DNA of 64,000 nucleotides, from positions 96,001 through 160,000 of the forward strand of contig CAVWBU010000049.1 in NCBI GenBank assembly GCA_963753345.1, read 5' to 3'. Source of the DNA: an uncultured Fibrobacterota bacterium (GTDB lineage Bacteria; Fibrobacterota; Chitinivibrionia; Chitinivibrionales; FEN-1185). The notes under the pieces were generated by a model, which was given only the letters and a program-made list of their open reading frames with translations, was not told the origin of the DNA and ran no database searches. Numbering within the stretch: position 1 is the first letter of the stretch; the number at the start of each line of letters is the position of its first letter. Below, piece after piece: positions 36,690-40,127 of this stretch. A program made the translations under genes and the position numbers.

Positions 36690-36718
36690 TTGACAAATTG
36701 TTTCGTGGAAGATATTAT
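36690..36718 (+). promoter_or_regulatory. Near-consensus sigma70 promoter
   Basis: TTGACA-17 nt-TATTAT. Confidence 0.75.
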
Positions 36719-36853
36719 TTATATGGAAGCAGGCGGGAACAACGCCCGCTTCCGATAAGTAAACAAACGAAATGGGGCTTGCGGTCCGACGAGTAACGAG
36801 TAAGTCCGCGCAAGTTCCGAGTTTCCCGTCCTCATCCAAAAGGAGGTGCTGCC

Positions 36854-36916
36854 GTGGCAGCGAAGAAGAGGAAAAAAGTCGCGAAGAAAAAAGCGACGAA
36901 GAAAAGGAAAAGATAG
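36854..36916 (+). CDS. 20-aa Lys/Arg-rich small protein MAAKKRKKVAKKKATKKRKR
   Basis: AAGGAGGT RBS with AGGAGG 7 nt before GTG; own promoter and terminator; too short for the ORF track. Confidence 0.7.
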   Translation: MAAKKRKKVAKKKATKKRKR

Positions 36917-36949
36917 GTCTTTCGTTCCTGCACGATGTGCGCAGGCAAG

Positions 36950-36978
36950 GCGGGTGGACGTGATGTCCGCCCGCTTTT
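36950..36978 (+). terminator. Intrinsic terminator
   Basis: GCGGGTGGAC-GTGAT-GTCCGCCCGC-TTTT. Confidence 0.8.
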
Positions 36979-37020
36979 GATTTTTAGGTTAGAGAATGGG
37001 AATCGAAAAGTTACTAATGG

Positions 37021-37152
37021 TGTCGGCGGGGGAAGTTTCCCCCTCGCTCCGGCCGCCTTCGGCGTCCTGCGCTACCCCCTCCTGGGTGCACCCCAAGTGG
37101 AAGCAGTGGCTGAATCAAGCATCTGTGTGGGGGCACCTACGTAGAGCAGTTG
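37021..37152 (+). repeat. Structured repeat family A, copy A5
   Basis: GGGGAAGTTTCCCCCTCGCTCCGGCC..TCCTGCGCTACCCCCTCCTGGGT..GGGGGCACC. Confidence 0.9.
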
Positions 37153-37259
37153 TGAAGGCATTCCTTTTTCTCACTCAGTTTTGTTTGATCCGCCACAAAA
37201 TGGCGCATTATTTATTGCCGGGGCAACGCCCCGGGGCGACAAACAGAACAATGTATATT

Positions 37260-39873: not shown

Positions 39874-39908
39874 TATCAAGTTTTTCACTTTCTCCCAATG
39901 AATTTGCT

Positions 39909-40058
39909 GGTGGGGGAAGGCTCCCCGTCGCTCCGGCCCTGCGCTCGTCACATCAAAGTTCGTCTTATTCCGCGCAGGTCCTGCGCTGCCCCCTCATGGG
40001 TAGCCGCCTTGACAAAGCAGTGGCAAGACCATGCAATGCTGTGGCGGCACCCACGAAG
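39909..40058 (+). repeat. Structured repeat family A, copy A6
   Basis: Close relative of A1 (GCCGCCTTGACAAAG..CATGCA..GCTG.GGCGGCACCCA). Confidence 0.9.
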
Positions 40059-40127
40059 AATAGTTGAGGAGTTGAGAGGTTGAGAAGTTAATAGGAAAAC
40101 AATGATTTACTCCTTGAAGATTCCGGC

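Follow-up and report, generated by a model that had tools for sequence, protein, structure and literature searches.

The stretch of DNA analysed here, called the window, is 64,000 nucleotides (nt) long and belongs to an uncultured Fibrobacterota bacterium (assembly GCA_963753345.1, contig CAVWBU010000049.1, positions 96,001 to 160,000 of the forward strand). The genome of this organism (G000) is available as a 55-contig assembly that is 94% complete, and the titles of the records for its closest relatives name Chitinivibrionales, Chitinispirillaceae, or Fibrobacterota metagenome-assembled genomes. Within the window, a small unit on the plus strand carries its own promoter and terminator and an open reading frame (ORF) for a lysine-rich peptide of 20 amino acids (aa). 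The unit lies between a LOG-family gene (PF03641), which is found directly upstream, and a plus-strand Tex-like gene with the Tex central region and an S1 domain downstream; a Mur-ligase gene and a YkuD L,D-transpeptidase gene are its neighbours on the minus strand. Wherever a locus is long enough for the gene order to be read, this order is Mur, YkuD / LOG, ORF, Tex. The unit is composed of the following elements, some of which were delineated in an alignment of eight close units (alignment A1).

36690 to 36718, plus strand: sigma-70-type promoter TTGACA-17-TATTAT, with TTGACA at 36690-36695 and TATTAT at 36713-36718, agreeing with the consensus at 11 of 12 positions.
36725 to 36753, plus strand: 5'-terminal hairpin GGAAGC..GCTTCC, present in the minimum free energy (MFE) fold and starting 7 nt past the -10 hexamer, at the predicted transcript start.
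36757 to 36763, plus strand: AAGTAAA motif in an A-rich single-stranded stretch 3' of the 5' hairpin (alignment A1).
36778 to 36814, plus strand: mid-leader stem-loop CTTGCGG ... CCGCGCAAG, with arms at 36778-36784 and 36806-36814, present in the MFE fold.
36830 to 36837, plus strand: pyrimidine-rich tract CCTCATCC, immediately 5' of the Shine-Dalgarno (SD) sequence and partly complementary to it.
36840 to 36847, plus strand: SD sequence AAGGAGGT, followed by a 6-nt spacer and the GTG start at 36854.
36848 to 36861, plus strand: small GCTGC/GCAGC hairpin, the loop of which contains the GTG start codon, predicted in the fold and in the eight-sequence consensus.
36854 to 36916, plus strand: ORF MAAKKRKKVAKKKATKKRKR, 20 aa, with a GTG start and a TAG stop.
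36900 to 36929, plus strand: predicted stem in which the ORF, at its purine-rich 3' end, pairs with a T-rich tract past the stop codon, taken from the consensus structure of the eight sequences (weak evidence).
36947 to 36987, plus strand: intrinsic terminator, consisting of a 14-pair GC-rich stem (36947-36977) and a T run.

Much of this layout had been proposed in an initial annotation made from the letters of the window. The promoter TTGACA-17-TATTAT, the GGAAGC...GCTTCC hairpin near 36725, the second leader stem CTTGCG...CGCAAG, the ribosome-binding site AAGGAGGT with the GTG ORF MAAKKRKKVAKKKATKKRKR, and a strong terminator were all recovered, but the 14 Lys or Arg residues counted in the peptide had to be corrected to 13 out of 20, i.e., 10 Lys and 3 Arg, with Ala and Val together accounting for another 5 of the 20. 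In the 3-kb stretch scanned, two promoter-like sites were found, vs. 0.9 +/- 1.0 in shuffled sequences. A promoter of this kind is unusual in the genome, where the pattern TTGACA-N17-TAT[AT]AT occurs 8 times, vs. 0.38 occurrences expected from base composition (4.52 Mb, both strands). Other sites with this pattern precede, among others, pilin-like and Fur-like ORFs, as judged by eye. Apart from the ORF described here, the 4.5-Mb genome contains no SD-led Lys-rich ORF.

The Lys-rich gene is kept between LOG and Tex throughout one order of the Fibrobacterota, the records of which are labelled Chitinivibrionales or Chitinispirillaceae. In a set of 27 records of Fibrobacterota loci gathered via the LOG protein, 25 contain a Lys-rich, SD-led GTG ORF 3' of LOG. 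One of the 27 loci (L012) stops at a contig break 257 nt past LOG, and in another (L017) the gap between LOG and Tex is only ~130 nt (L017:3145-3274) and holds no Lys-rich ORF. The ORF is also carried by the genomes G004, G029, and G006, where it measures 19 aa in the last of these. A GGAGG core is found 6-8 nt 5' of the start codon in all 28 units, and all 28 use GTG as the start, although the search also permitted ATG and TTG. A TTGACA-17-TAnnAT promoter with a score of 10-12 of 12 is present in 21 of these units, and hairpins with a T run follow the ORF in most relatives as terminators. Furthermore, all eight metagenome contigs that match the SD-start pattern display the full layout of promoter, leader, ORF, and terminator. 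Conservation downstream of LOG, to which the initial annotation had looked as a check, thus extends to the ORF and its ribosome-binding site as well as to the promoter and the terminator.

How widely the gene is spread was also assessed with a strict pattern (AGGAGG, 7-8 nt, GTG, 6 nt, AARAAR), for which 296 genomes of the phylum were searched. Within the order to which the window belongs, and with G000 excluded, it was found in 4 of 7 genomes of f1, 24 of 46 of f5, 2 of 4 of f2, and 4 of 7 of f4. These counts are lower bounds, as known carriers were missed (the spacing in G004, for example, is 6 nt). In the largest family of another order, the pattern was found in 4 of 151 genomes, in unlike sequences and at approximately the rate of a reversed-pattern control, and no such ORF was seen in the 11 of 25 LOG loci from other phyla that were examined. 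The gene has also been lost within its own order. In G005, which is 96% complete and belongs to the genus of the window, the interval from LOG to Tex contains no such ORF but instead an unrelated spacer of ~520 nt (L073, G005:C52). In G002, a contig break splits the unit (L072 = G002:C6 end; L009 = G002:C7 start): what follows LOG bears no relation to the promoter, and the end of the ORF and the terminator are found at the start of the next contig. An insertion into the G002 unit is possible.

Judged by its pattern of substitutions, the unit behaves as a translated gene, and its peptide is under purifying selection. At five loci with an identical 22-aa peptide, nucleotide identity is 93-100% in the ORF, 74-90% in the 150-nt leader, and 46-68% in the 100 nt downstream. 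Nine close pairs of short forms, which are kin rather than independent and use two of the loci twice, together display 29 differences that are synonymous and 6 that are non-synonymous (S = 123.5, N = 461.5), which amounts to a ratio of non-synonymous to synonymous differences per site (pN/pS) of 0.06, and 28 of these 35 substitutions are located at codon position 3. When all 15 pairs are considered, including those of long forms, pN/pS amounts to 0.32; pN is 0.18-0.24 in the two long-form pairs that diverge most, in which the alignment of the repeats is unsure. For comparison, pN/pS is 2.2-2.8 in the control frames +2, +3, -1, and -3, and the Lys-rich frame is the sole frame that is open in all 28 units, over up to 213 codons. 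The ORF, the SD sequence, and the terminator are unchanged in four metagenome contigs from DNA runs that cover the stretch; the leader in these contigs differs at positions 36735, 36739, and 36805, and in one contig, which is more divergent, 29 differences are found upstream.

The same data bear on the question whether the unit could be a non-coding small RNA (sRNA), with an ORF that arises incidentally from a purine-rich segment of this RNA and is not translated. The transcript of ~260 nt is indeed highly structured and ends at a strong terminator; in its predicted 264-nt form it is more stable than 200 of 200 dinucleotide shuffles (z = -3.89), and purine-rich short ORFs have few stops in any frame. 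However, the codon-periodic substitutions, the conservation of the ORF far above that of the leader, and the perfect SD sequence at ideal spacing in 28 of 28 units are difficult to reconcile with an sRNA, as are the frames of 138-213 codons that stay open in the long forms while all other frames carry stops. Also, no Rfam family was matched in the unit, and the two matches elsewhere in the 3 kb scanned (E <= 10) are at chance level. An sRNA is, therefore, considered very unlikely.

One of the other frames requires separate discussion. The antisense frame that shares its wobble positions with the Lys-rich frame also has a low pN/pS, i.e., 0.11, and it is open in the window from 36948 to 36832 on the minus strand. 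It could encode a hydrophobic Phe/Leu-rich product, for example, a membrane peptide resembling type I toxins. This frame is excluded because it contains 9 stops in four long-form orthologs and because the conserved signals, i.e., promoter, SD sequence, and terminator, are all on the plus strand, and not on the basis of pN/pS alone. In addition, no SD sequence was seen before its TTG start, and the promoter scan gave no minus-strand site downstream of the frame. A minus-strand product is thus scarcely credible.

If translated, the ORF might alternatively function as the leader peptide of an attenuator that senses lysine or Lys-tRNA and controls read-through into Tex. A classical attenuator is laid out as a short ORF packed with one amino acid, a terminator within 30 nt, and a gene on the same strand, and the unit is always followed by Tex. 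Yet, the orthologous ORFs reach 213 aa, the Tex-like gene does not belong to a lysine pathway, and in the window a dispersed repeat of ~125 nt lies in the ~700 nt between the terminator and Tex. No antiterminator was seen in the folds, in a search that was not exhaustive. Such control of Tex is, hence, even less probable than an sRNA.

The dispersed repeat (window 37028-37155) explains why the spacer to Tex, at 700 nt, is unusually long in the genome of the window. It has at least 46 matches in the genome, on both strands and with 74-90% identity, obtained from the 40 of 245 first-look candidates that were scored, and the depth of metagenome contigs rises from ~9 to 365 at its position. The similarity of translations suggests a further copy near 39898-40083. 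Other low-complexity DNA in G000 includes very long homopolymer A/T runs in contigs C16, C18, C32, and C45, which read as poly-K or poly-F over hundreds of codons; the example in C16 (~86,700-93,500, minus strand) and its like may be assembly artefacts or low-complexity DNA. The linkage to LOG was considered as a functional clue as well and was rejected, because the whole Mur-YkuD-LOG-ORF-Tex block is conserved as a gene order.

The orthologs range in length from 18 to 213 aa, and what they share is their composition, with 33-65% Lys plus Arg, and repeats of the AKK, PAKK, and VKK types. The form in the window contains only about four repeat units, and the longest orthologs end with a short non-basic C-terminal tail. 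The distribution of lengths was plotted on a tree of the LOG proteins with 36 ingroup and 3 outgroup rows, from which the duplicates L002, L006, L010, and L070, the loci L009 and L012, in which the region of the ORF is lacking, and 22 LOG loci belonging to other phyla were left out. The clade of the window, with 12 rows, contains short forms only (20-41 aa), another clade is made up of five loci that share one 22-aa peptide, a single form of 18 aa groups with the locus that has lost the gene, and the remaining clades have forms of 50-213 aa. Whole repeats account for the differences in length between near relatives (26 vs. 41, 75 vs. 95, and 181 vs. 138 aa). The sequences thus indicate that the length range arises by in-frame gain and loss of AKK-type repeats. 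As to the choice of start codon, an in-frame ATG is found in L018:3354-3596 five codons upstream and inside the SD sequence, which results in an 80-aa reading (MEVVKV...). Gene callers may choose this ATG over the SD-spaced GTG; this configuration was seen in one clade.

Similarity to known protein families was detected for the long forms. The 213-aa ortholog (L019) matches the Pfam family HC2 (PF07382) with 62.7 bits, where the gathering cut-off is 40, and matches below the cut-off were obtained for L015 (31.1 bits), L028 (27.1), L035 (23.1), L068 (19.3), and L018 (8.1). The 20-aa peptide of the window had no Pfam match at E <= 1 and no NCBIfam match, and HC2 was not matched over the cut-off anywhere in the genome of the window. 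For a 57-aa form, the NCBIfam matches were all far below the cut-off, with 8.1 bits to a Burkholderia H1-like model. A sequence search of the PDB with a 69-aa ortholog yielded only the Lys/Ala-rich N-terminal region of Streptomyces HrdB/SigA (E >= 0.03), a likeness that was rejected as compositional. A homology search with a 75-aa ortholog gave 0 of 8000 scored candidates at E <= 0.001, as low complexity defeats such a search. Exact look-up in a collection of 15 billion proteins found 0 of 10 and 0 of 5 peptides, forms of 60-213 aa included, which says little about annotation. Two traits of Hc2-type proteins are present in the family, i.e., Lys/Ala-rich low-complexity repeats without a globular domain and length polymorphism by in-frame repeats.

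Proteins with similar segments are encoded elsewhere in G000. Several larger ORFs contain terminal or internal Lys/Ala-rich H1-like tails, such as ...KKTKSAKKTARRKAKPAKKAAKRKK; they are found in C41 (minus-strand scan coordinate 89245, 386-codon frame), at C32:138263 (952 codons), and at C28:65615. A similar tail in a relative produced the spurious DNA match L007. The opposite in charge to the Lys-rich peptide is an extremely acidic ORF of 59 aa (MILDEQFDADEILRDVDELDDDDD...) on the minus strand of G000:C24, near plus coordinate 180,830, which is preceded by a near-consensus promoter, TTGACA-17-TATAAT, and a GGGAGGT SD sequence.

The leader measures 123-171 nt in 26 of the 28 units and ~280 nt in the other two. 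In an order-wide alignment, little is conserved beyond the SD region and the pyrimidine tract, and this CU-rich tract 5' of the SD sequence is the most conserved feature of the leader apart from the SD sequence itself. More can be seen in alignment A1. In the 5' hairpin, four of six pairs have changes on both sides that preserve pairing, and in the terminator compensatory changes are present in 6 of 13 consensus pairs. The four pairs of the GTG-presenting hairpin are invariant in the eight sequences and are hence beyond a covariation test, and the 11 pairs between the end of the ORF and the T-rich tract have one-sided changes only and no compensatory ones. In the AAGTAAA motif, 5 of 7 columns are invariant and the other two vary in one sequence each; the motif was also seen in more distant leaders. 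In the mid-leader stem, CTTG is present in five of the five closest sequences and CAAG in four of them (CAGG in L011); the stem is absent from the consensus structure of all eight, and other clades have different mid-leader stems.

The initial annotation had suggested that the structured leader may be regulatory. This suggestion gains moderate support from the conservation of both leader length and 5' hairpin, and from the SD sequence, which is predicted to be sequestered in most relatives: its mean predicted probability of being unpaired is 0.15, vs. 0.35 in mononucleotide-shuffled leaders (32 units; the loci are kin and not independent). In the clade with the 22-aa peptide, a 13-pair imperfect hairpin, in which the pyrimidine tract pairs, covers both the SD sequence and the GTG. 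In the leader of the window, such sequestration is not predicted. According to these models, the leader could plausibly exert control in the family as a whole, and support for such control in the copy of the window is weak. A start codon that is always GTG and a tract able to pair with the SD sequence suggest a restrained dose of the peptide. Polycations of this kind are toxic when overmade in other systems, and restraint of dose would fit the toxicity of overproduced H1-like proteins.

The reading favoured here, to which a probability of about 0.55 is assigned, is that the unit is an independently transcribed and translated micro-gene for a minimal, Hc2-like, Lys/Ala-rich polycation of 20 aa, with DNA as the likeliest target and with a leader that restrains translation. 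The strength of the promoter and SD signals suggests that the peptide is made in quantity. The peptide would be a disordered polycation, without a fold or a specific site, that binds polyanions by its charge. By analogy with Hc2, the KPAA tails of AlgP and PhaF, ScvA, and protamines, chromosomal DNA is most likely the target, which could be neutralised in charge or compacted; RNA and polyphosphate (polyP) might be bound as well. Translation of a potentially harmful polycation would be restrained jointly by the long leader, in which a 5' hairpin would confer stability and a pyrimidine tract can pair with the SD sequence, and by the weak, invariant GTG.

Several observations weigh against this reading. 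The case for the high expression that the initial annotation had proposed consists of the strength of the signals, a search for RNA runs that contain the stretch having found none, and the binding of DNA, RNA, or polyP is deduced from charge and analogy. The low pN/pS of the antisense frame was mentioned above. What underlies the HC2 match is a composition of low complexity, and none of the models was matched by the 20-aa peptide itself. For the leader of the window, an unpaired SD sequence is predicted with a probability of 0.43, vs. 0.40 in mononucleotide shuffles, and the predicted pairing between the tract and the SD sequence is weak. The gene is dispensable, being missing between LOG and Tex in L017 and in G005, and the genome already has four HU/IHF-family genes. 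In view of these four genes and of the loss in two lineages, the peptide would be an accessory, and not the sole, component of the nucleoid.

The initial annotation had left the choice between a nucleoid-condensing and a ribosome-associated basic peptide, and a role on the ribosome or on RNA is, indeed, what would have to be considered first in place of DNA. In this case, the product would be a small basic protein like bTHX, bS22, or bL37, which sits in a pocket of the rRNA or coats RNA. These tiny ribosomal proteins are similar in size (about 24-33 aa) and charge, the strong SD sequence and promoter fit an abundant product, and the downstream neighbour Tex is an S1-domain RNA-binding protein. 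However, bTHX, bS22, and bL37 have a fixed length and a conserved sequence, as expected for proteins at a fixed rRNA site, whereas the orthologs of the Lys-rich peptide vary between 18 and 213 aa and share composition alone. Such freedom in both length and sequence makes a non-specific target likelier than a fixed ribosomal pocket. Furthermore, no ribosomal model of NCBIfam or Pfam was matched, the gene is located outside any ribosomal-protein cluster, and two lineages are without it. The genome also has a separate candidate for a bS22-like protein. A ribosomal function is, therefore, unlikely, and of the two possibilities in the initial annotation, the one that is preferred is the histone-H1-like nucleoid or polyanion-binding peptide, towards which the HC2 match, the length range, and the absence of a ribosomal-protein context lean.

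The bS22-like candidate, MSSVKKHRKAKINRHKRKKKRRLSRHKKRTWQA, is a very basic ORF of 33 aa at G000:C32:179853-179954 (L071:354-455, plus strand). It matches Pfam PF08213 (COX24_C), presumably the family of ribosomal protein bS22, with 20.3 bits where the cut-off is 23 (E 5e-4), and has no NCBIfam match. Its sequence makes it a likely unannotated bS22-like gene, separate from the Lys-rich gene.

The polycation could also organise granules of polyP or polyhydroxyalkanoate (PHA) or tether them to the nucleoid, like the H1-like tails of AlgP and PhaF. The KPAA-repeat tail of AlgP localises to polyP granules and spaces them, and the homologous tail of PhaF is thought to tether PHA granules to DNA (PMC9239181). 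The genome of the window encodes PPK1 (152.9 bits), and a cultured member of the class is described as filling with PHA "lipid cysts" in old cultures (PMC4814513). In contrast to the Lys-rich proteins, which are tail only and have no granule-binding part, AlgP and PhaF add a structured N-terminal domain, and there are no ppk or pha genes in the neighbourhood. A granule function is thus rated as somewhat less likely still than a ribosomal one.

Compared with the DNA-directed polycation favoured here for the window, a broader view is considerably more speculative. Free "histone tails" of 18-26 residues might be widespread and overlooked bacterial genes, the products of which act as polyamine-like counter-ions of nucleic acids, with a dose set through the SD hairpin by a structured leader that senses temperature, ionic strength, or the peptide. 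The Fibrobacterota locus would then be an order-wide, syntenic example, in which an Hc2-like protein of 213 aa was reduced to 18 aa by shrinkage, followed by strong purifying selection. This generalisation is considered doubtful.

No description of this Lys-rich gene in Fibrobacterota, of bacterial oligolysine micro-genes, or of stand-alone forms of 18-26 aa was found in the literature, as covered mostly by listings and abstracts. Bacterial Lys-rich H1-like proteins are well known, and the finding extends this known kind and opens no new one. Its relevance is, first, that ORFs so short are dropped by gene callers, so a candidate abundant polycation may be missing from protein catalogues. Second, the locus offers a natural length series of 18-213 aa at one syntenic site, with purifying selection clear on the shortest forms, which makes it testable what the minimum useful length of a histone-H1-like tail is and what it binds. 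Third, it supplies a defined candidate element for translational control, consisting of the leader, the SD-pairing pyrimidine tract, and the invariant GTG.

Among known systems, the Lys-rich peptide resembles ScvA of Coxiella burnetii in being a stand-alone, tiny, basic peptide with its own gene. ScvA is about 30 aa long and Arg/Gln-rich, not Lys/Ala-rich. It is tied to a developmental form, and the likeness drawn here is one of description. ScvA is presented as an unusually small basic peptide of the small-cell variant that was proposed to condense chromatin (PMC13568565, citing Heinzen et al. 1996). With the C-terminal domain of linker histone H1 and with protamines, the peptide shares the composition class of K, A, P, V, and T and the presumed nature of a disordered, DNA-neutralising polycation (PMC9239181). 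It is, however, far shorter and lacks the winged-helix globular domain, and protamines are Arg-rich. The tails of Pseudomonas AlgP and PhaF are Lys/Ala/Pro-rich, H1-tail-like repeat polycations as well, and the long orthologs contain similar PAKK and AKKA repeats. These C-terminal KPAA-repeat tails bind DNA, and AlgP is found on polyP granules (PMC9239181). Unlike these proteins, which possess structured N-terminal domains, the Fibrobacterota proteins consist of the tail alone.

The closest resemblance is with chlamydial Hc2 (HctB, PF07382), which is likewise Lys/Ala-rich, of low complexity, and tail-only, without a globular domain and with a length that varies through its repeats. To our knowledge, no developmental cycle is known for the organism of the window, unlike for the carriers of Hc2. 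The Fibrobacterota carriers are free-living anaerobes and not Chlamydiae, and their genes have a conserved leader of 123-171 nt and a GTG start. In Hc2, the number of lysine-rich pentamers varies, resulting in proteins of 165-237 aa (PMC2848022); the product in the window, with its 20 aa, has about a tenth of this length and itself matches no model. The likeness is compositional, and common descent with chlamydial Hc2 is not implied. On the basis of composition and repeats, the family is best described as Hc2-like histone-H1-tail proteins, of which the peptide in the window would be the minimal member.

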